The notes: a model not told the origin generated them from the letters alone. Positions 24,767-46,808 are shown, counted from the stretch's first letter. The stretch: DNA of 64,000 bases from Nitrospirota bacterium (GCA_963705595.1 CAVPKD010000006.1:321781-385780), one strand, 5' to 3'. Numbers and translations: made by a program.

Positions 24767-26113
24767 TTATTCTACTCCGAGTTCTTTCAGTCTTTTCCAC
24801 AGAGTGACCCTGCTGATGCCGAGATGTTTTGCCGTAAGGGTCCGGTTTCCTTTGTGCAGGGTCAGCGCCGAGCGCAGCTTTTCCCGGTCCATAATCTGTC
24901 CATTCCCTTCTGCCTTTTTCTCCTCGAAGACATATTCAGGCAGGTCTGTGACTTCGACGGTGTCTCCTTTGCAAGTGATAGCGCTATGCTCCAGGGTGTT
25001 GATCAACTGTCTAACGTTTCCTGGCCACCGGTAGTTTTCGATGATATCCAATGCTTCAGGGCTTATTCTCCGGATATCCTTATTGTTAATATGGGAGATC
25101 TTCTTCAAATAGTGGAACGTGATGGCGGGGATATCTTCAGCCCGGTCCCGCAGAGGCGGAACCCTGATTAAAATGGAGTTAATGCGGTACAGGAGGTCTT
25201 CCCGGAAGATGTCCGAATTGACGAGGGCGTTCAGGTCCTTATTCGTGGCGGAGATCAGCCGGATGTTGACGGAGATCGGATTGTGATCTCCCACGCGTTC
25301 CACCACTTTTTCTTCGATGACCCGTAGTAGTTTCACCTGCATGACCTTTGGCATGTCGCCAATCTCATCGAGGAAGATACTGCCGTTATGAGCAGCCTCG
25401 AACCTGCCCATCCGGTCGCTCATGGCGCCTGTGAAGGAGCCTTTCTTGTGACCGAAGAGCTCACTCTCGAGAAGATAATCGTTGAGCGACCCGCAGTTCA
25501 TCGCGACGAACGGGCCCTCTTTGCGCCTGCTGAGGGTGTGGATGGCCTGGGCCACGAGGTTCTTGCCGGTACCGCTTTCGCCGCAGATAAGCACAGGCGC
25601 TTCACTCACGGAAGCGTTCCGGATCTGCTCGAACAGAGTCTGCATAGGGGCGCTCTTCCCGAGCAGACCCTTGAACCAGTATTCCTGCCGCAGTTCCTGC
25701 TTCAACTCTTCGAGCTCCATCTCCTTCATATACAGCGATGTGATATCCGTCATAGACTCTACGGCACCGATCATTTCGCCGTTCTCGTCCTTAAGGACCG
25801 TAGCGTTCTTTAAGAGATAGACGGCCCTCCCATCGCTGGACCTTATGCGGCATTTCTTGTTTTCGATCGCGCCCATCTTGAATATGCCGCAGTCTTTTTT
25901 CCTCCCCTCGTCGGTTAAGAAGACACAGGTGTCGCTGTCGAGGATCGTGCACTGTTGCCCAATGACATCTTCTTTGCGATATCCGGTAATATTTTCCGCA
26001 GCTCGGTTGAAGAAGAGAATATTCCCGTCTTTATCGACGATCATGAGTCCGTCTCGCATGGTTTCGAAAACGTTCATAAGAAAGTGAGGTTCTTTGCATA
26101 ATTTTTCAATCAT
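24767..26113 (-). CDS. Sigma54-dependent transcriptional activator (PAS - AAA+ - Fis HTH, no receiver domain)
   Basis: GESGTGKN Walker A, GSFTGA (GAFTGA variant), FLDEIGDM, RWPGNVRQL, C-terminal LGISRVTLWKRLKELG; the PAS domain carries 4 Cys. Confidence 0.9.
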   Translation of the reverse strand: MIEKLCKEPHFLMNVFETMRDGLMIVDKDGNILFFNRAAENITGYRKEDVIGQQCTILDSDTCVFLTDEGRKKDCGIFKMGAIENKKCRIRSSDGRAVYLLKNATVLKDENGEMIGAVESMTDITSLYMKEMELEELKQELRQEYWFKGLLGKSAPMQTLFEQIRNASVSEAPVLICGESGTGKNLVAQAIHTLSRRKEGPFVAMNCGSLNDYLLESELFGHKKGSFTGAMSDRMGRFEAAHNGSIFLDEIGDMPKVMQVKLLRVIEEKVVERVGDHNPISVNIRLISATNKDLNALVNSDIFREDLLYRINSILIRVPPLRDRAEDIPAITFHYLKKISHINNKDIRRISPEALDIIENYRWPGNVRQLINTLEHSAITCKGDTVEVTDLPEYVFEEKKAEGNGQIMDREKLRSALTLHKGNRTLTAKHLGISRVTLWKRLKELGVE

Positions 26114-29952: not shown

Positions 29953-31299
29953 ATGCTGGATAGATTATTAAAAGACCCTCAATTTTTGCCTGAAGTGTTC
30001 GAGACCATGAGGGACGGCCTTATGGTGGTAGATAACAAAGGCCGTATCCTCTTATTCAACCGTGCGGCTGAAGAAATAACCGGGTATCGAAAAGACGAGG
30101 TTATCGGCAAAGAATGTACTATTTTCCAATGTGATACCTGTGTGGTCATAAGCGAATCAGAGGGACGGAGGGACCGTCAACTAGAAAAATTCGGTTCCAT
30201 TTACAATAAGAGATGTCGGATACGGTCGGGGGACGGGAGGTCTGTGCTTCTGCTAAAGAATGCCGTTGTTATACGGGACGACAATGGAGAAATACTCGGT
30301 ACGGTCGAGTCGATGACGGACATTACATCACTCTACAACAAGGAAATGGAACTGCAGGGGCTCAAGGAGGATTTGAGACAGGACTACTGGTTCATGGGGT
30401 TACTGGGGAAGAGCATACCCATGCAGAGATTGTACGAGCACATTCGGAATGCCGCCGTAAGCGAAGCCCCTGTCCTGATAATCGGAGAAAGCGGCTCCGG
30501 CAAAAACCTCGTCGCCCACGCCATACATAAACTCGGTAGACGCAGGGACGGACCATTCATCCAGATGAACTGCGCGTCGCTGAACGAACAGCTACTTGAA
30601 AGCGAGCTCTTCGGCCACAAGAAAGGTTCCTTCACCGGCGCGGTAAGCGACCGCATCGGAAGGTTCGAGGCCGCTCATGACGGTGGGATCTTCCTCGACG
30701 AGATCGGAGATATGCCGATGACGATGCAGGTAAAACTCCTCAGGGTCCTTGAAGAAAAAGTCGTGGAGCGCGTGGGAGACCACAAGCCGATCCCCGTGAA
30801 CATCAGGCTCATTTCAGCCACGAACAAGGACCTCAGCAGCCTGATCCACGCAGGCAAATTCAGGGAAGATCTCCTTTACCGGATAAATTCCATTGTCATC
30901 AACGTCCCTCCGTTACGGGAGCGAAAAGAAGACATCCCGCTTATCGCACTCCACTACCTCAGAAAGATTTCCTCGGTAAATAACAAAGAGATCCGGAGCA
31001 TCAGCCCTTCTGCGATGGAGATTTTAATAGACTTCCCCTGGCCGGGCAATGTGCGGCGGCTCATCAATGCCCTTGAACACAGCGCTGCCACCTGTAAAAG
31101 CGATACCATTGAGGTCTCGGATCTGCCGGACTATCTCGTCTACGAAAAAAAGACAGAGATAAACGAAAATCGTATCGACATCGAGGAGATCCGTTCGACC
31201 CTTTCTTTGTATAAAGGCAATAGAACCCTTGCGGCGAAGCACCTCGGGATCAGCAGGGTCACTCTCTGGAAAAGACTGAAGGCAATCGGCATCGACTAA
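29953..31299 (+). CDS. Sigma54-dependent activator, paralog of 24767-26113 (same 448-aa PAS - AAA+ - HTH layout)
   Basis: Collinear: FETMRDGLMVVD, EVIGKECTIF, GESGSGKN, GSFTGA, PWPGNVRRL, LGISRVTLWKRLKAIG. Confidence 0.9.
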   Translation: MLDRLLKDPQFLPEVFETMRDGLMVVDNKGRILLFNRAAEEITGYRKDEVIGKECTIFQCDTCVVISESEGRRDRQLEKFGSIYNKRCRIRSGDGRSVLLLKNAVVIRDDNGEILGTVESMTDITSLYNKEMELQGLKEDLRQDYWFMGLLGKSIPMQRLYEHIRNAAVSEAPVLIIGESGSGKNLVAHAIHKLGRRRDGPFIQMNCASLNEQLLESELFGHKKGSFTGAVSDRIGRFEAAHDGGIFLDEIGDMPMTMQVKLLRVLEEKVVERVGDHKPIPVNIRLISATNKDLSSLIHAGKFREDLLYRINSIVINVPPLRERKEDIPLIALHYLRKISSVNNKEIRSISPSAMEILIDFPWPGNVRRLINALEHSAATCKSDTIEVSDLPDYLVYEKKTEINENRIDIEEIRSTLSLYKGNRTLAAKHLGISRVTLWKRLKAIGID

Positions 31300-38096: not shown

Positions 38097-38407
38097 CTAT
38101 TTATATCCGCCTGCTGCCGGCGCCCCGTACCCGCCTGACTTGGGAGCCGGTGCCCCATACCCGCCTGACTTGGGAGCCGGTGCCCCGTACCCGCCTGCTG
38201 CCGGTGCTGTACCGTATCCGCCCGGATGCGGGAGCCGGTGCTGAACCGTAGCCGCCGATGCATGACGCGGAACGCCGAGCCATATCCGCCTGCGGCGCCC
38301 TGGCCCGGCGCGGCTTTCGCTATCATATCATGCTGCTGGCTGTACACCACCAGGAAACCGAGAATGCACACCACGATCGCAATGAGAATTACCAGCGGTG
38401 CTTTCAT
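38097..38407 (-). pseudogene. Small membrane-anchored Gly/Tyr-rich repeat protein (about 7 GGYG motifs); two +1 disruptions
   Basis: MKAPLVILIAIVVCILGFLVV anchor, then GGYGSA / GGYGSAPAPAS / GGYGTAPAA / GGYGAPAPKS x2 / GGYGAPAA / GGYK* recovered across three frames. Confidence 0.5.
38104..38300. repeat. Degenerate tandem repeat encoding the GGYG units; the core is two 30-bp copies
   Basis: 38122-38151 and 38152-38181 differ at one base (GCCCCGTACCCGCCTGACTTGGGAGCCGGT); flanked by diverged copies. Confidence 0.75.
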
Positions 38408-38442: not shown

Positions 38443-38694
38443 TTAGCCCTTTTTGATTTTAAAGACGATCTTGCCGCCTTCGTTCTTCTTCTCCATCAGG
38501 TCATGTCCGGCCTGATCGAGCATCTGGACGATCGTTTCCGCCGACGAGGGGTTGTCGAAGGTCATCTCGAGGACCTCGCCCTCTCCGATCTTCTCCAGCG
38601 ATTTCTTGCAGTAGATCTGGGGATGGGGGCACACATAGCCGCACACATCGAGCATATAGACACCGTCACCTTTTTTTTCAAATTTCATTGCCAT
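38443..38694 (-). CDS. TusA/SirA-family sulfurtransferase
   Basis: 83 aa; LDVCGYVCPHPQI (CPxP active-site motif); directly downstream of a YeeE gene. Confidence 0.85.
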   Translation of the reverse strand: MAMKFEKKGDGVYMLDVCGYVCPHPQIYCKKSLEKIGEGEVLEMTFDNPSSAETIVQMLDQAGHDLMEKKNEGGKIVFKIKKG

Positions 38695-38725: not shown

Positions 38726-40156
38726 TTATGGGTAGGTTAAAAATCCGCCATTTCCTGCCGCCATCTTTCTCTCCGACCACCAGTTGAAGAACTTGACACC
38801 GGCAAAGGCGCCGGTCACCATGCCGATGCCGTACAGCCATCCGCTCGGATCGCCACCTGCAACGCGGATGAAGAACGCGCCGATGTTGCAGCCGAGCGCG
38901 GGACGCGAGCCCAGTCCCATCAAGGTCCCGCCCAGCAGACCCCACACGATCAGTTCGCCCTTCGGCAGCTTGAACTTGAACTCCTTGCTCATGAGCGACA
39001 TGATCATGGCGCCGAAGATGATGCCGAAGGACATCCAGAGCGCCGGGTTGCGCCAGGGCACGGGGAGCCCGTTATTGACGCCGAAGAACACGTTGTCATG
39101 CATGTTCCATCCGAGCTTGTCGAGGACCCACCCGCCGAACTGTCCTTCCTGGCTGGTGATATACCAGTAGCCCGGGTCAAAGACCGTGCCCCGGATGCTC
39201 GTGTCAGCGGCATGCCCCATCTTGGTGAGGAGCTCTCCGAAATTCGAGATGCCGAACTTGATCTGCATGCCCTTCATGACGAAGATGTGGATGCCCGCGG
39301 TGATGCCGATGATGACCCCCATAATAGAGGTCCGCTTGGACGCCGTCAGCATGCTCCAGATCCCGGCAAACTCGTCGGAGAAGCTTGTCGGCTTGCCCGT
39401 CTGTTTTGCGCGCTTCTTGAGGAAGCCTTTCCGGATGTAGAACGCATAGATGACGACGATCAGCACGAGGGCAGGTATGATCGCGCTGATGAGCGCGTCT
39501 GCGACGAAGAATTTTGATGCGCCCGGGAGGGCATTTGAGAAGGCTTGGGTGTGTGAAAGCTGGATAGAGGGCTGGTCCCAGACGTAGCCGGAAAGGTAGT
39601 AGTCGAACCAGGACCTGACCTTGTCGGCGGGAAGATGCTTCGCTGCGGAAGACGCCTTCCAGGAATCCGGGACCAGTTTCAGGAAGGGCCCGCCGATGTC
39701 AACAAAGATCGCCTGGCCGAAGGATATCCCGAGGATGGAAAGTATCGAGGTGCCGTTGCCTTCGCCGATCTTGTACAGGGACCCCGATGCGCACCCTCCG
39801 GCAAGGACCATCCCCACGCCGAAGATCATCCCCGATATCAGCGTGTGGACGCCGAACGGGGCCGGATGGAAGGTGCTCATGTTGGTTGCTGCGAGCGTTG
39901 CCTGGATGACGCTGAAAAAGATGAGCGCGATCAGGATGCCGACGGCCATTCTCGGAACACCGGCGGCAAACAGATCTCGCGATGCCGAAGCGAAGCAGAA
40001 CCTGCCGTACTGAAGCATCATGCCGTAAGCGATTCCGAACCAGATGTATGCTACCAGGTACATGTAATATACATTTGCCTTGTAATAGAGCAGGCTCACC
40101 AGAATCATCAAGCCTGTTACTACGAAGGCCCAGATCTGATTTTTTTTCTCTTCCAT
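38726..40156 (-). CDS. YeeE/YedE-family sulfur-compound permease (intact, 476 aa)
   Basis: YGRFCFASASRD, LAGGCASGSLYKIGEGNG, ALGCNIGAFF; polytopic. Confidence 0.85.
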   Translation of the reverse strand: MEEKKNQIWAFVVTGLMILVSLLYYKANVYYMYLVAYIWFGIAYGMMLQYGRFCFASASRDLFAAGVPRMAVGILIALIFFSVIQATLAATNMSTFHPAPFGVHTLISGMIFGVGMVLAGGCASGSLYKIGEGNGTSILSILGISFGQAIFVDIGGPFLKLVPDSWKASSAAKHLPADKVRSWFDYYLSGYVWDQPSIQLSHTQAFSNALPGASKFFVADALISAIIPALVLIVVIYAFYIRKGFLKKRAKQTGKPTSFSDEFAGIWSMLTASKRTSIMGVIIGITAGIHIFVMKGMQIKFGISNFGELLTKMGHAADTSIRGTVFDPGYWYITSQEGQFGGWVLDKLGWNMHDNVFFGVNNGLPVPWRNPALWMSFGIIFGAMIMSLMSKEFKFKLPKGELIVWGLLGGTLMGLGSRPALGCNIGAFFIRVAGGDPSGWLYGIGMVTGAFAGVKFFNWWSERKMAAGNGGFLTYP

Positions 40157-40457: not shown

Positions 40458-42167
40458 TCAAGGGTTTTTGATGGGGGGAAGGGAGAGGTTTTTTGGTAGA
40501 TTCTGACGCCGACGATAGTATCGAAATATTTTTTCGCTCGTATTGAACGATTCGGATAATCGGTATCCTTCGAGCCTTTGTGCAACAGGTTTCGGCAGCG
40601 GGTCATTGGAAGCGTCCGAAATGACAACAACGGGAACGTTTAAAAATGCATCATGTTTGGCAATATAATAAGTCGGGTTCCGGTATGCCCAGGTGAAGCG
40701 GAGAGAAGATTGTTCAATTTCTTCGCGAGGAGGGAAGTCTTCAGGCTGGTAGTGATACCGTATCTGCTTGTTAGTGAAAAGGTCGATAAGGGGGACAGCA
40801 ACAGCAGGGTTGACAACGGGCTCCTTAGAAAACAATGTTATGACCTCGATCTCCCCGGCGTCCAGCGTATTGAGATACTCGCCGGCATGTTTCAGGTTCG
40901 CGACGCTCATGCTCTCAGCAAGCGGCAGGAAGGCGAAAATCCCGATTACGAGCGATGTCGTGACCGTGCTGAAGAGTATGAATCGTCTCAACTCATCCCG
41001 TTTGATGACCTGCAACCCGTACCCCGCCATGAGCGTAAGCATGGGGAATACGGGCAGGGTGTATCGGATCCTCCTGATGCCGAAGAGAACGATGAGCAGA
41101 ACGAGCCAACTGATGATCGCATAACTCGCGTCGCGTTTTCGCAGCGCGACAGCGAGGGAAACCAGTGCTGATAACGTGATGAGCGGGTGCATCTGGAACA
41201 GGAACGTTGAATGAAAACTTTCTCCCCATCGGTCGAGCCCGGGTTTTTGATACTCCAGCAGGAGTATGACCTGTTCTGAAAACACGTCGAACTTTGTAAG
41301 GAGTATCGCTCCCATAACTGCCGCTGCCATGAGCAGAATAATAGCACCTCTCAGAAGCGGACGGCGGTCTTTCGATCCAGCACGAACCATGGCGTATACG
41401 ATGAGCACAACTATGAGCACGGAGAGCATGAACCAGACAGAGTATTTGGACAGCATTGTGAGAACGATCGTTACTACGGAACAGACAATCCTTGCGGCAC
41501 CGCCCTTATTTAATGCATCGAGGTACGTATAGATCGCGAGTGTGAGAAAAAACATAGTCGGGACATCAACCAGCATAAGCGGGACCTGGGCCAGCAGATA
41601 AGGAATGCCGAGAAGCAGCAACCCGGCGGAGAATCCCGTTTCTCTGTTCCAGAGCGTTTTCCCGATCAGGGAGGTCAGAACAACAGTCAGAGAGAACAGT
41701 ACAGTCGTAAACAACTGTATGAAGATCCTGTTCTCACCGAACAGTCTGAAGATCATTCCGTAGAGAAACGGTACGAGCGGCATATCCGTCCAGGCAAGGA
41801 TCGTTCTGCCCCATTCTTTCAGAAAATAGCCGATGCCGTACACTTCGAGGTGTTTTGCCTGGGTAAAATAGCGCGACGCGTCGACAATGATCTCGGACTC
41901 TTTCCAGAACGGCAGGATGACTGCAAATGAGAGCACCGCAAGAAACGGTATCTGATAGTTGCCGGGAATTGCTGTCCGTGCCAGGAAAGCAGAAATGATC
42001 AACCCAGCGACGAGCAAGAAATAGATCCGTGACGCGTCAACCCTGTCAAGCGCCCATGCCCAGCTGAACAGGCTGTTGTCGTCTATCCCGCGGAGGAGAA
42101 AAAGGGTGATGAAGGCGATAAGAAAGACAGCGGAGATGAGGAAATAATTAGTGAGCTTGTTTTGCAC
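40458..42167 (-). CDS. ArnT/PMT-like (GT39/GT83-type) polytopic glycosyltransferase
   Basis: 569 aa with more than 10 TM helices and a C-terminal soluble domain; GTG start preceded by TGCTATAAT. Confidence 0.65.
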   Translation of the reverse strand: MQNKLTNYFLISAVFLIAFITLFLLRGIDDNSLFSWAWALDRVDASRIYFLLVAGLIISAFLARTAIPGNYQIPFLAVLSFAVILPFWKESEIIVDASRYFTQAKHLEVYGIGYFLKEWGRTILAWTDMPLVPFLYGMIFRLFGENRIFIQLFTTVLFSLTVVLTSLIGKTLWNRETGFSAGLLLLGIPYLLAQVPLMLVDVPTMFFLTLAIYTYLDALNKGGAARIVCSVVTIVLTMLSKYSVWFMLSVLIVVLIVYAMVRAGSKDRRPLLRGAIILLMAAAVMGAILLTKFDVFSEQVILLLEYQKPGLDRWGESFHSTFLFQMHPLITLSALVSLAVALRKRDASYAIISWLVLLIVLFGIRRIRYTLPVFPMLTLMAGYGLQVIKRDELRRFILFSTVTTSLVIGIFAFLPLAESMSVANLKHAGEYLNTLDAGEIEVITLFSKEPVVNPAVAVPLIDLFTNKQIRYHYQPEDFPPREEIEQSSLRFTWAYRNPTYYIAKHDAFLNVPVVVISDASNDPLPKPVAQRLEGYRLSESFNTSEKIFRYYRRRQNLPKNLSLPPIKNP

Positions 42168-42522: not shown

Positions 42523-43023
42523 TTATTTTGCAATAGGATAGTTTTTTGAAGCTGCGCCCTGGATGGCTTCCTGCATCTTCTGACCTCCGCGATATCCCTT
42601 AATCCAGGCGGCATAGCCGAATGCCATGGTGGAGGCATCGTAGCCGAGCGCGCGCAAGCCGACGACAGGAAGGTTCTGGGTCTGGCCGGTTACGCAGACG
42701 AGGATGACCTTCTTGTTCTTCGGAAGCTTCTTGAGATTCTCGGGCTTAAAGATGTCCTGGACGCTTATCTGAATAGAACCGGGAATGTGCCCTTCGCCGA
42801 ACTCGGCCGGGTTGGGCCGGACATCGACGATCACGAAATCGGTCTTTTTTGCGTTGATCATCGCGAGGACATCGTCTGCCGTTACCTGCCAGAACTTTGC
42901 GTCGGGACCTTTTGAAAGCACATCATTCAGCTTCTTTGCCATATCATCTGCAGCAGACGCGGCCGGAATCGATACCGACACTGCCAGAACCACTATGCAC
43001 AGCATGACCAGTATTTTCTTCAT
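42523..43023 (-). CDS. Secreted single-domain rhodanese (sulfurtransferase)
   Basis: Signal peptide MKKILVMLCIVVLAVSVSIPAASA; VIVDVRP...GHIPGS; active-site loop VCVTGQT; GGAGGAG RBS. Confidence 0.8.
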   Translation of the reverse strand: MKKILVMLCIVVLAVSVSIPAASAADDMAKKLNDVLSKGPDAKFWQVTADDVLAMINAKKTDFVIVDVRPNPAEFGEGHIPGSIQISVQDIFKPENLKKLPKNKKVILVCVTGQTQNLPVVGLRALGYDASTMAFGYAAWIKGYRGGQKMQEAIQGAASKNYPIAK

Positions 43024-43105
43024 TTCCTTCTCCTCCCTATCGTGAATTTTTTTGTTCGCCATTCGGTTCTGTTCTAAAAAAATGAACTTCTCCAGTTAAC
43101 AAACA

Positions 43106-43408
43106 TCACAAGACGATCACCCGATCTGCCTCGTGCAGCATCACTGCATTGTTGTACTGGCTTCCACAGACGATCTCCTTCGAAAGGCCCTCCGAAGTAA
43201 CCCCCATGTGTTTTGCGCTGTGGTCGCAAAAACTGACAGTGACCCCTTTCGTCTTGCATAATTCGGCGAACGCAGGGGTCCCGACGAGCTTTGTGCCCTC
43301 ATCCATGTTGAAGAGGACGACTATGTGTCCTTTTGCGAGGGCAGCTTTTGTAATTCCCTGTACCGCATTAAGATTTTTATTGGTATTCACGAATATGCCG
43401 AGCTTCAT
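43106..43408 (-). CDS. DsrE-like sulfur-relay protein (100 aa)
   Basis: MKLGIFVNTNKNL..., conserved Cys in VSFCDHSAKHMG, GSQYNNAVMLH; GGAGG RBS; paralog of 45139-45447. Confidence 0.7.
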   Translation of the reverse strand: MKLGIFVNTNKNLNAVQGITKAALAKGHIVVLFNMDEGTKLVGTPAFAELCKTKGVTVSFCDHSAKHMGVTSEGLSKEIVCGSQYNNAVMLHEADRVIVL

Positions 43409-43489
43409 GTGTTTCCCCTCCTCTCGAGTTTTCGGCTGTCGGAATGTGTCCACTTCCGGAGCACTCTGTTCATCATGCAGCTGTACAAC

Positions 43490-43657
43490 CTACCAGGATA
43501 TGACTTTATCGCTGGAGAAAATGAGATCTACGATCTGGTCGTAGTTCTTATTCTCCTTGATATCCACGATTGTGACGTCATTTCCCTTTTTCTGAACTTC
43601 CATGATTGTTTTTGTCGTGGCATCGAGATCCTGTTTCAGAATATATAATATTTTCAT
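43490..43657 (-). CDS. 55-aa DsrH/TusB-like mini protein (not in the ORF track)
   Basis: GAGGTG RBS then ATG; MKILYILKQDLDATTKTIMEVQKKGNDVTIVDIKENKNYDQIVDLIFSSDKVISW*; paralog at 45775-45945. Confidence 0.6.
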   Translation of the reverse strand: MKILYILKQDLDATTKTIMEVQKKGNDVTIVDIKENKNYDQIVDLIFSSDKVISW

Positions 43658-43681
43658 ACGTTATCACCTCGTTCCGGGTAT

Positions 43682-43954
43682 TTAGTACGGTATGATATGG
43701 TCATACTCCAGAAGCTTCTTGGCCAATTCTTCGTTGGAAATGTAATCCATGCCCGCGTTTTCTTTCGTGTTCGTAGCGAGCTTCATATCCATGTCCTTGA
43801 TGGTCTCGAGATTCAGGTCATTATCGGCGTTGCTTTCCACCTTTCTATCCAGCACATAGACATCGATGGTGTCGTCCATGAGCGTAACGCCCACGGACAT
43901 CCTCAGAGCCTCACCCTGCCGGTCCCTGACGAGTACAGCGATTTTTTTCCCCAT
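43682..43954 (-). CDS. 90-aa DsrF/TusC-like protein
   Basis: MGKKIAVLVRDRQGEALRMSVGVTLMDDTIDVYVLD...AKKLLEYDHIIPY*; AAGGAGG RBS; paralog at 45475-45753. Confidence 0.65.
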   Translation of the reverse strand: MGKKIAVLVRDRQGEALRMSVGVTLMDDTIDVYVLDRKVESNADNDLNLETIKDMDMKLATNTKENAGMDYISNEELAKKLLEYDHIIPY

Positions 43955-44009
43955 GGCATCCTCCTTGAATTCAAATTCGCCGCGTTGTAATAATTTTTTT
44001 AGGTAAGAA

Positions 44010-44026
44010 TGCAAAAGATTCACCCC
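44010..44026 (-). promoter_or_regulatory. Weak sigma54-type promoter candidate for the minus-strand DsrF/H/E-rhodanese operon
   Basis: Minus strand reads GGGGTGAATCTTTTGCA; GG and TTGCA are at consensus spacing but the rest of the -24 box is poor. Confidence 0.25.
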
Positions 44027-44617
44027 TGCGAACAAAATTGCATGTTTGGATGTGAACGAGACCACCTCCTCCGATTGAAATTTGGCAGTGCTGCTGAATG
44101 TTGAAAAAACCGCCGCGATGAGAGATATTTAATGCGTGCCAGTGGACGGACCGCGCTGCTTCTTGTGCTTAGTTGCGAGATATAGAGTGTTATTAGTTTC
44201 TAAACAATATTCTATTGTGTGGGCAAGATTATGATGTCAAGGATGCGCGAGTAACATAATACAAAAAAAATTAAATTGCAAGAAGAGAGCATGATCCCTC
44301 TCATAAAGTATCGTTATGAAGCGATGAAAGATTTTAATAGGAAGGGGGAAGGCAGTATATGCAACCGGCATTAAATTTTATTATATTTCGAAATGGAGTA
44401 TTGACAGGCGAGATGGTTTTTGATAAGTTACTACATCTCGGTTCGAAAGTTCAGAGTTATGGTGACTTACCAATCTGGCGATAGAGTGCTGTGTTTGCAG
44501 AGCGGACACTCTGTCCAGCATCTTTCTCAAGAGAGCGTATCGCCAATTGTCATGTGATAGCAACCGGGCAAATCAGATAGCCCAATTTTGATAATCATTC
44601 GTGAGGAGGAACGTATC

Positions 44618-44866
44618 ATGGCATTGAAAGATGAAGCACCGAAGGAAACGTTGGATACTCTTGGAAGGGTATGCCCCTATCCGCTTCTGTTGACCAAAAA
44701 GGCGCTCGAAAAGCTCGCAAGCGGCCAGATGCTCAAGGTTCTCTGCGATGCTCCCGCGTCTGCCGAGGAGAGCATCCCGCGCTACTGCGAGAAGAACAAA
44801 TTCGCCTTCGAGTCCGTAAAGCTCGATGACAAGGGGATGTGGGAACTCTATATCAAGAAGTCGTAA
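44618..44866 (+). CDS. TusA/SirA-family sulfurtransferase
   Basis: MALKDEAPKETLDTLGRVCPYPLLLTKKAL (CPxP); GAGGAGG RBS. Confidence 0.8.
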   Translation: MALKDEAPKETLDTLGRVCPYPLLLTKKALEKLASGQMLKVLCDAPASAEESIPRYCEKNKFAFESVKLDDKGMWELYIKKS

Positions 44867-45138
44867 GCACGTAAGCAGTACCCGTATGGCTCTCAATGGT
44901 TTTATTCAACAGCGATCTCGTTGTTTCCAGGGATCCGAACTGACCGCACTACAAGCCGGGTAGAATACAACTGCCCGGCTTTCTTGTTTGTCGTGACCGG
45001 AGGTCACGGTTTCACAGGATACTACGAAGCGGGGAAGGGCGCTCGCGGGTTTTCCCGGAGCGAACGTCGGGGCGTAAAATTCCCCGTAGTGTTCTTCGTC
45101 CTGAAATGGCATAATTGCAGTTATCGAAAGGAAGTGAG

Positions 45139-45447
45139 ATGATGGCGAATGATATGTTGGGTATCATGGTTACGAAGTATGAGAACCTGGAGCATATCGC
45201 CGGAGTTGTCAAGGCGGCGCGGGCTGCGGGGCATCCGGTCGTGATATTCTTGACCGACGAAGGTGTGCGTTTTACAAGGGATCCGAAATTCCTAGAGTTG
45301 CTCAAGGTTCCCGGCGTGGAGCTGTCCTGCTGCGATCACAGTTGCGAGCGGATCGGGATTCACGAAAAGACAGATGGCATATCATACGGCAGTCAGTACA
45401 ATAATGCCGGGATGCTGCACGACAGCGCGCGGTTATTGGTGTTCTAA
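45139..45447 (+). CDS. DsrE-like sulfur-relay protein, paralog of 43106-43408
   Basis: MLGIMVTKYENL..., LSCCDHSCERIG, GSQYNNAGMLH; start is ATG 45139 or 45154. Confidence 0.7.
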   Translation: MMANDMLGIMVTKYENLEHIAGVVKAARAAGHPVVIFLTDEGVRFTRDPKFLELLKVPGVELSCCDHSCERIGIHEKTDGISYGSQYNNAGMLHDSARLLVF

Positions 45448-45474
45448 CAAATATGAGAACAATGGGAGTGTTCT

Positions 45475-45753
45475 ATGGGAGATACGAAAAAAATAGCGGT
45501 AATCGTGAGGGAGAGGCAGGGCGAAGCACTCCGCGTATCGGGCGGGCTTACTCTGGCTGACGACACCATCGAGGTCTTTGTGCTGGATCGGAAACTGGAA
45601 AAGAACGACCCTGAAATCGCTCAGCCCCTTGAATTGGTGAACGATCTTGACCTGAAGATGTATTCCAACAATCCCGAAAACGGGTACACGACAATCAGCC
45701 TCGAGGAGATGGCAAAGAAACTCCTTGAATATGACATTGTGGTACCATACTAA
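45475..45753 (+). CDS. 92-aa DsrF/TusC-like protein, paralog of 43682-43954
   Basis: KKIAVIVRERQGEALRVSGGLTLADDTIEVFVLD...AKKLLEYDIVVPY*. Confidence 0.65.
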   Translation: MGDTKKIAVIVRERQGEALRVSGGLTLADDTIEVFVLDRKLEKNDPEIAQPLELVNDLDLKMYSNNPENGYTTISLEEMAKKLLEYDIVVPY

Positions 45754-45774
45754 CATGATAGGAGGTTTCGTATT

Positions 45775-45945
45775 GTGAAGATCCTGCATATCTTAAAAAC
45801 AGCGCCGGACGCAAGCACAAAAAAGATCATCGAAGTTCATGCGTCCGGACATCAAATGAAAGCCGTTGAGCTCTATAAAGGTGGAATTTCCTACGACAAG
45901 CTTTTAGAGGATGTATTCTCACACGACAAGGTGTTCTGCTGGTAA
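45775..45945 (+). CDS. 56-aa DsrH/TusB-like mini protein (not in the ORF track)
   Basis: GGAGG RBS, GTG start; VKILHILKTAPDASTKKIIEVHASGHQMKAVELYKGGISYDKLLEDVFSHDKVFCW*. Confidence 0.55.
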   Translation: MKILHILKTAPDASTKKIIEVHASGHQMKAVELYKGGISYDKLLEDVFSHDKVFCW

Positions 45946-46808
45946 GGGGTAGCATGCGGATGGTCCAAGGGGGCGTGATTGCCGCAAGTACAGAACGACT
46001 GCGGGGCCTGCGAACGGGGGGACGAGCGCGGTCCTTATTTCACTATGAAATACATTGCAACATACTCGAACTATCTTCGATGTTTCGGGGAACAGCCTGC
46101 AGGTTTGGCAAAATTATTATCTATTATCGGGCAACTTATTTATAGAGGCGCAATTCACTCGTCATCCGGTTTTGCAATAAATATGCTCTGACCACACGTC
46201 AGCGATGTGGGCTCTACAGGAGAACTCGTGGATATCTCTGTCACGCTATCGGGGATTGCGATGGGAGCCGGTTTCGGATTCGTGCTTCACATGATTTCTA
46301 CGCTTGCCATGTCGAGCGTGGTGTCAATGGCGAGTATTGTCGTCGGCAGCTGGTCCATGTTTTACCTGCTTTTCATGAAAAAGTCCGCAGGGAGGTAAAG
46401 TCTCCATTCGGATGGAATGCGATACCCGGGGAATATATGGGCGACATTGCCAAATATGTAAACGTACAGGATGACGTTTTCAAGGAAGAATACCCTTGCG
46501 GTTTCCCATTGTCTGCCGATGTACTCCAGGAATATGACAGGGGGAAGAAACCACCCAACCAGAGAAGGTAAATTTACTCTACCAAATATGCTGAAGACCA
46601 TCCCGCTGGTGTCCCGCCATCCCGGGAACTTGTGACCTCGCATCGTCTTATTTCCTACCACACTTGTATCAAATGGCACAGAGAAGCGGTGCTGTACGCA
46701 TACATGGCACAGGTATGCCTTTGATTAATCACATCTTGCAAATCTGGCAAGAGTATTGCAAAAATTCTGTAGTCCAGCGGAAACAGAAAGCTGCCGGACT
46801 GTGGAGGT

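Follow-up and report, generated by a model that had tools for sequence, protein, structure and literature searches.

Two probable divergent YTD-type clusters in a Nitrospirota genome

This study examined two divergent sulfur-relay gene clusters, A and B, in a 64,000-nucleotide stretch of DNA from a Nitrospirota bacterium (GCA_963705595.1 CAVPKD010000006.1:321781-385780; hereafter the window, in which all positions are counted). The findings make it likely that these are two back-to-back YTD-type clusters of different subfamilies, that each codes for a DsrEFH type II heterotrimer acting in the sulfur route proposed below, and that the two trios are old, nonredundant paralogs. The YTD cluster has been described as yedE, tusA, a dsrE-like gene, chp1, and chp2 (PMC13293266, PMC13047784, PMC12998232), and its DsrE-like, Chp1, and Chp2 proteins have been modeled as a DsrEFH-like double heterotrimer (PMC13047784). 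In an ISME J paper, the complex was named DsrEFH type II; the three proteins copurified at 1:1:1 in a 29 kDa peak, TusA persulfidated DsrE at Cys67, and the sulfur then went to DsrC (PMC13293266). The same paper found the genes in 985 genomes and in three subtypes, one of them mostly from Nitrospirota.

The interpretation of such a trio as DsrEFH is already published (2026). An initial annotation of the window had given the name and content of the YTD cluster, which match the three papers, and had proposed a miniature DsrEFH/TusBCD-type complex for each trio, which has been published for homologs as a model (PMC13047784) and as a purified complex (PMC13293266). What is new here is the presence of two old subfamilies back to back, the free gene order, a rhodanese and a PMT_2-like gene as accessories, a terminator that separates modules, cysteines specific to a subfamily, and the stepwise loss of redundant permeases. 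The three papers mention no back-to-back pairs, permuted order, linked rhodanese, or PMT_2-like gene, and neither the yedE loss and terminator split of cluster B nor its extra conserved cysteines.

All eight open reading frames (ORFs) of the initial annotation were recovered at the positions it had given. On the minus strand, dsrF_A (Chp1; 43682..43954) and dsrH_A (Chp2; 43490..43657) encode predicted DsrF type II-like and DsrH type II-like subunits of 90 aa and 55 aa, both without Cys, the latter matching TIGR03011 with an E-value of 0.005. They are followed by dsrE_A (43106..43408), a predicted DsrE type II subunit of 100 aa with its active-site Cys61 in FCDHSA (Pfam DsrE, 2.4e-6). The plus strand carries dsrE_B (45139..45447), a predicted DsrE type II subunit of 102 aa with active Cys65 and a CCDHSC motif comprising Cys65 and Cys69 (Pfam DsrE, 5e-5); dsrF_B (Chp1; 45475..45753), the 92-aa product of which has 787 relatives, mostly in Nitrospirota; and dsrH_B (Chp2; 45775..45945), with a GTG start and a 56-aa product that has a penultimate Cys55 (C-terminal ...FCW). 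A heterotrimer of one DsrE (~100 aa), one DsrF-like (~90 aa), and one DsrH-like (~55 aa) subunit would have a mass of ~27-28 kDa in either cluster (summed masses, 27.3 and 28.0 kDa).

BLASTP bore out the three paralogous pairs at 45-60% identity: 60% for dsrF_A and dsrF_B (E 7e-34), 45% for dsrH_A and dsrH_B (E 6e-16), and 46% for the DsrE-like pair (E 4e-29). The median ratios of nonsynonymous to synonymous substitution rates (dN/dS) against orthologs, which are approximate, dS often being saturated, were 0.09 for dsrE_A, 0.08 for dsrH_A, 0.07 for dsrF_A, 0.10 for dsrE_B, 0.06 for dsrF_B, and 0.12 for dsrH_B. The B copies in genomes without yedE_B gave ratios of 0.05-0.20. These values indicate that all six small genes are genuine coding genes under purifying selection.

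Phylogeny and gene order of the trios

In a neighbor-joining tree of the concatenated E, F, and H proteins, the B copies were monophyletic (100%), as was the rhodanese-bearing A clade (100%), and all A-type trios were split from B plus the loci L023 and L024 with 90% bootstrap support. The concatenated identity was 50% between A and B and 65-69% between A and the loci L012-L014 and L019. The split and the 50% identity indicate that B did not arise from A by recent duplication. On the basis of this phylogeny, we rejected the idea that both trios stem from a tandem or inverted duplication of recent date, and the inverted-order duplication of the initial annotation gave way to an old, separate B lineage. 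A and B are likely to be old paralogs rather than redundant copies. The two subfamilies also differ in their cysteines. A second Cys lies four residues past the DsrE active Cys (CDHSC, C-x3-C) in approximately 9/10 of the B-type sequences, and DsrH ends in Cys-Trp in 71 of 72 B-type sequences; neither feature occurs in A.

The 90-aa protein, used to scan a single genome from each species, yielded 24 loci for A, nearly all from Nitrospirota metagenome-assembled genomes (MAGs), and the 92-aa protein, used to scan metagenomes, yielded 80 loci for B. The trio is conserved beyond this genome: across more than 100 related loci, the E, F, and H genes always occurred together, whatever their order. 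The close clade L001-L011 has the arrangement of the window (dsrF-dsrH-dsrE-rhodanese, followed by PMT_2-like-yedE-tusA-usp-amine oxidase-radical SAM). The loci L013-L020 have no rhodanese and carry F-H-E or F-E-H, then directly the PMT_2-like gene, yedE, and tusA; L012 has neither the rhodanese nor the PMT_2-like gene, and its yedE directly follows dsrE. The order is E-F-H in L023 and L024 (Thermodesulfovibrionales). Judged from these loci, gene order inside the trio is free (E-F-H, F-H-E, and F-E-H), and annotation should therefore not require E-F-H.

Within a set of 1.84 billion representatives, the F family was small, with 192 clusters at the 50% identity level and lengths of 85-100 aa almost throughout. 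It spans Nitrospirota plus Desulfohalobiaceae and Desulfobacteraceae MAG proteins; the organism names of the cluster members listed were those of MAGs, with no cultured strain among them. Three contigs (L003, L015, and L017) were labeled as Betaproteobacteria or Streptomycetaceae MAGs and carry A-type clusters 62-92% identical to that of the window. They are probably mis-binned Nitrospirota contigs, and mis-binning of this kind could mean that the published share of Pseudomonadota and Actinomycetota in DsrEFH type II subtype 1 is too high.

Proposed assignment of the DsrE, DsrF, and DsrH subunits

The active Cys of DsrE (F/C-C-D-H-S; Cys61 in A and Cys65 in B) was invariant in 20 diverse sequences, and the DsrE family profile aligned it to the Cys of VVCVAAA in Allochromatium vinosum DsrE (2HY5_A; whole-sequence E 0.096). 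Cys67 of Electronema aureum DsrE is the equivalent of A. vinosum DsrE Cys78. Both DsrE-like proteins passed the PF02635 cutoff of 22.7 bits, with 28.1 and 23.9 bits. The Pfam searches suggested by the initial annotation matched DsrE, TusA, and Rhodanese but returned nothing significant for the 90/92-aa and 55/56-aa proteins. At the curated cutoffs of the canonical families (PF02635; PF04077 and TIGR03011), F had no match and H reached 17 bits against a cutoff of 49.2. Among 22 diverse members of the H family, 14 matched TIGR03011 (TusB/DsrH) below threshold, with a best E-value of 2.4e-4, and no other family recurred. The Cys of DsrH (Cys20 in A. vinosum) has no counterpart in H_A, which contains no Cys, or in H_B, the only Cys of which is the penultimate Cys55.

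The AlphaFold2 model of F displayed a beta-alpha-beta-alpha-beta-alpha-beta arrangement, with a predicted local distance difference test score (pLDDT) of 87.7 and a predicted template modeling score (pTM) of 0.79. The model of H displayed a beta-alpha-beta-alpha-beta unit (pLDDT 75, pTM 0.44). The best PDB match of the F model in Foldseek was 2PD2 (ST0148), with a probability of 1.0, a query TM-score (TMq) of 0.75, and a marginal E-value of 0.019; 2HY5_B and 2D1P_B were absent among the 50 matches listed. We take 2PD2 to be a DsrE/DsrF-family protein, although an attempt to confirm this through papers and PDB sequence searches failed. With hhalign, H against F and H against Escherichia coli TusB gave nothing, and H matched the N-terminus of E with a probability of only 32%.

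Synteny, size, cysteines, and distribution give good support for placing both trios in DsrEFH type II. The published criteria are more than 80 bits against each of three hidden Markov models (HMMs) and co-occurrence with dsrAB/dsrC, which is of the reductive type in ~74%. Synteny with tusA and a permease was found for both trios: yedE_A-tusA_Y lies downstream of trio A, and tusA_B lies upstream of trio B; yedE_B, which the window has lost, occurs in 32 related loci. The DsrEFH type II/YTD systems of Electronema aureum GS, Electrothrix, Desulfobulbales, and Dissulfurispira thermophila have the same parts (yedE, tusA, one protein resembling DsrE, and a pair of small hypothetical proteins), a conserved DsrE Cys, a trio of ~28-29 kDa (the masses here being summed from the genes), a distribution over Nitrospirota plus Desulfobacterota, and a location away from the dsrAB genes. 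In contrast to the published YTD clusters, the window carries two clusters of different subfamilies back to back; A is ordered F-H-E (F-E-H in some relatives) and includes a signal-peptide rhodanese and a PMT_2-like gene, whereas B has no yedE genes, is separated from tusA by a terminator, and has extra conserved cysteines.

By family analogy, the trios would also resemble the canonical DsrEFH (A. vinosum, 2HY5) and TusBCD (E. coli, 2D1P), in which three paralogous DsrE-fold subunits, with the active-site Cys on DsrE/TusD, receive sulfur from TusA and pass it to DsrC/TusE. However, the subunits here have 100/90/55 aa compared with 130/136/102 aa in DsrEFH and 128/119/95 aa in TusDCB, any similarity in sequence lies at the detection limit or under it, H does not carry the DsrH Cys20, and neither dsrAB nor tRNA-thiolation genes are encoded alongside. 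The penultimate Cys of B-type DsrH calls to mind the Cys arm at the C-terminus of DsrC/TusE.

Accessory genes of cluster A

Cluster A (minus strand, 43954 to 38443) has the order dsrF-dsrH-dsrE-rhodanese-(PMT_2-like)-yedE-tusA. The rhodanese that had been annotated as the end of this operon is present, but the cluster continues codirectionally with the PMT_2-like gene, yedE, and tusA. The single-domain rhodanese (42523..43023, minus strand; alternative start at 43062) matched Pfam Rhodanese (9.6e-15) and carries Cys110 in the loop CVTGQTQ. This residue aligned with the catalytic Cys in both domains of 6MXV, indicating that the protein has a Cys at the catalytic position of the active-site loop, as a competent PF00581 member should. 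Its N-terminus resembles a Sec-type signal peptide (MKK, a hydrophobic core, and ASA|AD), and the MKK, the hydrophobic core, an A-x-A site, and the Cys were kept in all 11 orthologs. The gene was confined to the close clade L001-L011 among the loci compared, which identifies it as a clade-specific addition to cluster A. The protein shares with PspE, Sud-type, and pRho rhodaneses a signal peptide and one rhodanese domain with a catalytic-position Cys; in contrast to these, its gene is part of the cluster and immediately follows dsrE_A, its loop CVTGQTQ is without the usual Arg, and its scores are far under the PspE cutoffs. The Desulfobulbales periplasmic rhodanese pRho has been reported to be coexpressed with YTD genes.

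A polytopic membrane protein of 569 aa (40458..42167, minus strand) is PMT_2 (GT-C)-like (Pfam PMT_2, 3.3e-10). Of 19 A-type loci, 16 had its gene in the interval from dsrE/rhodanese to yedE, at identities down to 34%, and on this count it is a conserved neighbor of A-type trios; a sequence search for solved homologs returned none. A weak match of the rhodanese to NCBIfam NF045521 'rhoda_near_glyco' (23 bits against a cutoff of 145) is curious beside a GT-C-like gene. Judging from its short name alone, this family may occur near glycosyltransferase genes.

The yedE_A gene (38726..40156, minus strand) encodes a predicted YedE/YeeE-family sulfur (thiosulfate) permease of 476 aa (Pfam Sulf_transp, 7.8e-40) and is the only intact permease gene at the locus. 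Matches of its product to the NCBIfam YedE/TsuA families stayed under cutoff. It pairs with tusA_Y (38443..38694, minus strand), encoding a predicted TusA/YeeD-type sulfur carrier with Cys22 in a CPHP motif (Pfam TusA, 1.2e-18), which was syntenic with yedE in 16 loci. Both yedE_A-tusA_Y and the ancestral tusA_B-yedE_B resemble YeeE/YeeD (TsuA/TsuB) in placing a YedE-family channel beside a TusA-family carrier; however, the NCBIfam scores are far under the cutoffs, and YedE_A has 476 aa compared with about 330-360 aa. Between tusA_Y and usp, overlapping doubtful ORFs contain a 30-bp tandem repeat (38116-38197; 2.7 copies with 94% matches).

Two relatives (L018 and L019) carry a distinct, distant TusA-like gene, 34-37% identical to tusA_Y, directly upstream of dsrF. 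In L011 (3392-5546), tusA_B has the same orientation as dsrF_A and lies directly 5' of it, resulting in a tusA-led A cluster.

The divergent spacer and cluster B

The clusters are separated by a divergent, AT-rich control region of 663 bp (43955..44617), with a GC content of 0.37-0.41 compared with ~0.50 in the flanks. The initial annotation had drawn this spacer as 520 bp (44066-44587); its limits were corrected because all orthologs start at the ATG of the 90-aa protein and the 37 codons upstream are unconserved. A 127-aa extended dsrF_A ORF (GTG at 44065) was rejected, as its upstream part is unconserved and contains indels. An alignment of eight genomes revealed conserved blocks at 44169-44191 and 44251-44282, a consensus palindrome (CCATAA-N7-TTATGG) around 44302-44318, a promoter-like TTGACA-17-GATAAG at 44401-44429 pointing to tusA_B, and a hairpin at 44565-44583 just 5' of the ribosome-binding site (RBS) of tusA_B. 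An Rfam search of the spacers for riboswitches or other RNAs gave no match. A conserved Shine-Dalgarno-like GGAGGAGGTGG (44062-44072, minus strand) is located ~110 nt upstream of dsrF_A.

The first gene on the plus strand, tusA_B (44618..44866), encodes a predicted TusA sulfur carrier, the Cys19 of which belongs to a CPYP motif (Pfam TusA, 3.6e-21). Its RBS and ATG were conserved, and the gene was kept even in relatives without trio B. A gap of 272 bp separates it from dsrE_B and contains a predicted intrinsic terminator (44953..44991, plus strand), which a terminator scan identified as a hairpin (44953-44981) with an 11-bp stem and a T-rich tail. This hairpin (GCCGGG...CCCGGC plus a T-run) followed tusA_B in the window and likewise in 10 relatives, where changes in the stem were compensatory; the same hairpin sat after yedE_B in canonical B loci. 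The plus-strand operon had been described as led by TusA; tusA_B does lie upstream, but its leading role is doubtful, as the conserved terminator suggests that there are probably two transcription units. The cable bacteria tusA-dsrEFH genes have been reported as a single operon (PMC13293266). The position of the hairpin, after yedE_B in the usual form and after tusA_B in the window, further suggests that the uptake (tusA-yedE) and relay (dsrEFH) units are separate modules. The sequence TGGCATAAT (45107-45115, plus strand), ~25 nt 5' of the dsrE_B start and with a similar TGGGATAAT in L010, looks like an extended -10 element, which would give trio B its own promoter 3' of the terminator. A reading of TGGCATAATTGCA before dsrE_B as a sigma-54 promoter was rejected because the spacing is wrong; it has the look of an extended -10 instead.

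The usual B form was tusA_B-yedE_B-terminator-dsrE-dsrF-dsrH, followed by surA-like, ftrD-like, ftsX, and ABC genes (32 metagenome loci, plus 7 cut off); its yedE_B product has ~361-368 aa in three loci read and is 26-37% identical to the window YedE. A yedE-less form, in which dsrE_B lies 160-300 bp after tusA_B as in the window, was found at 12 loci. Cluster A adjoined the yedE-less form in all eight of these 12 loci with a visible upstream region and the usual form in none of the 21 loci showing at least 1.5 kb beyond tusA_B. By comparison with the usual form, yedE_B has been cleanly deleted from the window locus. A second permease gene has left a remnant (46207..46398, plus strand), a 63-aa in-frame piece of a YedE-family permease gene found by tblastn. 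Its residues 5-28 correspond to the N-terminal part of a full-length yedE product (~340 aa), and its residues 17-63 to the C-terminal part; the full gene lies just downstream of dsrH_B in the relatives L035 (5676-6725), L061, L083, and L060. In six close relatives (L002, L004, L005, L006, L008, and L009), dsrEFH_B is gone while tusA_B and the terminator remain, and in L002, L004, L005, and L008, surA directly follows these. Cluster B would accordingly derive from the canonical form tusA-yedE | dsrE-dsrF-dsrH by loss of its permease genes and serve as an accessory module, which sister genomes have lost.

Upstream of tusA_B in the canonical B loci L033, L043, and L099, an apparent Rieske-like protein with a twin-arginine translocation (Tat) signal and cytochrome b-like membrane proteins were observed, as read from N-terminal sequences alone; cluster A was not upstream of tusA_B in these three loci.

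Proposed sulfur route and alternative explanations

The route that we propose is drawn, at every step, from the families of the proteins. The Sec-exported rhodanese would handle periplasmic thiosulfate or polysulfide sulfur, and YedE_A would import the sulfur compound and, as the sole intact permease, serve both trios; thiosulfate uptake by YeeE/YeeD is known from the literature on homologs. The TusA proteins (TusA_Y and TusA_B) would pick the sulfur up on the Cys of CP[HY]P and pass the sulfane sulfur to Cys61 of DsrE_A and Cys65 of DsrE_B. From DsrE, it would move to DsrC and DsrAB as the sink, both assumed to be encoded elsewhere in the genome.

Several results weigh against this interpretation. 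Type II membership is judged from synteny, size, cysteines, and distribution. The fold-based support for F as a DsrF is weak, as judged from the model; the H model had no PDB match in Foldseek, an hmmsearch of the F and H family profiles against PDB sequences found nothing, and F against E in hhalign was not significant. The resemblance of F to the C-terminus of TusC, noted in the initial annotation, is real and positionally exact but not significant, as hhalign aligned only the last 20 residues with E. coli TusC (E 0.008, probability 5%). Export of the rhodanese was predicted by eye from its N-terminal sequence. None of dsrAB, dsrC, apr, and sat lies in the 64-kb window, which leaves the downstream acceptor as an assumption, and published work disagrees on whether the physiology is one of oxidation or of disproportionation.

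The ~90-aa and ~55-aa proteins might instead be unrelated, for example antitoxin-like, and merely lie beside a DsrE-like gene without forming a complex. That they reach no Pfam or NCBIfam family at cutoff, that stray weak matches occur (PHD_like in 5 of 23 F members), and that the Foldseek E-values are marginal would fit such an explanation, but it is highly improbable given the strict co-occurrence of three genes at more than 100 loci despite their permuted order, the copurification of the homologous trio (PMC13293266), and TusB/DsrH being the only recurrent signal for H. Trio B could also be a redundant, decaying copy that lost its permeases once A lay adjacent and adds nothing functionally. 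The missing yedE_B, the downstream yedE cut to a 63-aa remnant, the six relatives without dsrEFH_B at the same site, and the perfect tracking of yedE_B loss with A adjacency (8/8 versus 0/21) are consistent with decay. Nevertheless, trio B has three intact genes on which purifying selection acts even in yedE-less genomes (dN/dS 0.05-0.20), the B-specific cysteines are conserved (the +4 Cys in ~9/10 and the C-terminal CW in 71/72), and the genes are tightly spaced behind their own promoter-like TGGCATAAT (45107-45115); we consider decay quite unlikely.

A further explanation, which is possible although doubtful, is that the trios are specialized isoforms with different chemistry or partners. 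Here, A would be coupled to periplasmic sulfur mobilization through the rhodanese, the PMT_2-like protein, YedE_A, and TusA_Y, and the C-x3-C and DsrH C-terminal Cys of B would serve a resolving-cysteine, trisulfide/disulfide step or another acceptor. The ancient divergence, the presence of one TusA per paralog, the subfamily-specific Cys patterns, the accessory genes linked to A only, and the published coexpression of periplasmic rhodaneses with YTD genes all point in this direction. However, a position of the extra cysteines near the active site is hypothetical, trio B is dispensable in close relatives, and the extra cysteines were persulfidated nonspecifically in the published in vitro experiments (PMC13293266). 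The bolder form of this explanation, in which A with the rhodanese and the GT-C/PMT_2-like protein constitutes an undescribed trans-envelope sulfur route feeding YedE and B uses a different transfer chemistry or acceptor, is unlikely.

It has been proposed that DsrEFH type II marks the ability of many "sulfate reducers" to oxidize or disproportionate sulfur as well. If the two-cluster interpretation holds, soil and groundwater Nitrospirota can combine at least two old subfamilies, with different cysteines and accessory genes, in one genome, and of two adjacent clusters, one drops its permeases first and its relay genes next. The locus supplies concrete targets for mutagenesis and leaves the picture of how the system works unchanged.

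Neighboring genes

The genes of the window around the locus were housekeeping and regulatory only, namely glnA, rho, the EPSP synthase gene, two PAS-sigma54 activators, and an ABC/FtsX pair. The two PAS-sigma54-activator-HTH_8 regulators, at 24767-26113 (minus strand) and 29953-31299 (plus strand), have 448 aa each and align without gaps over their full length at 70% identity.

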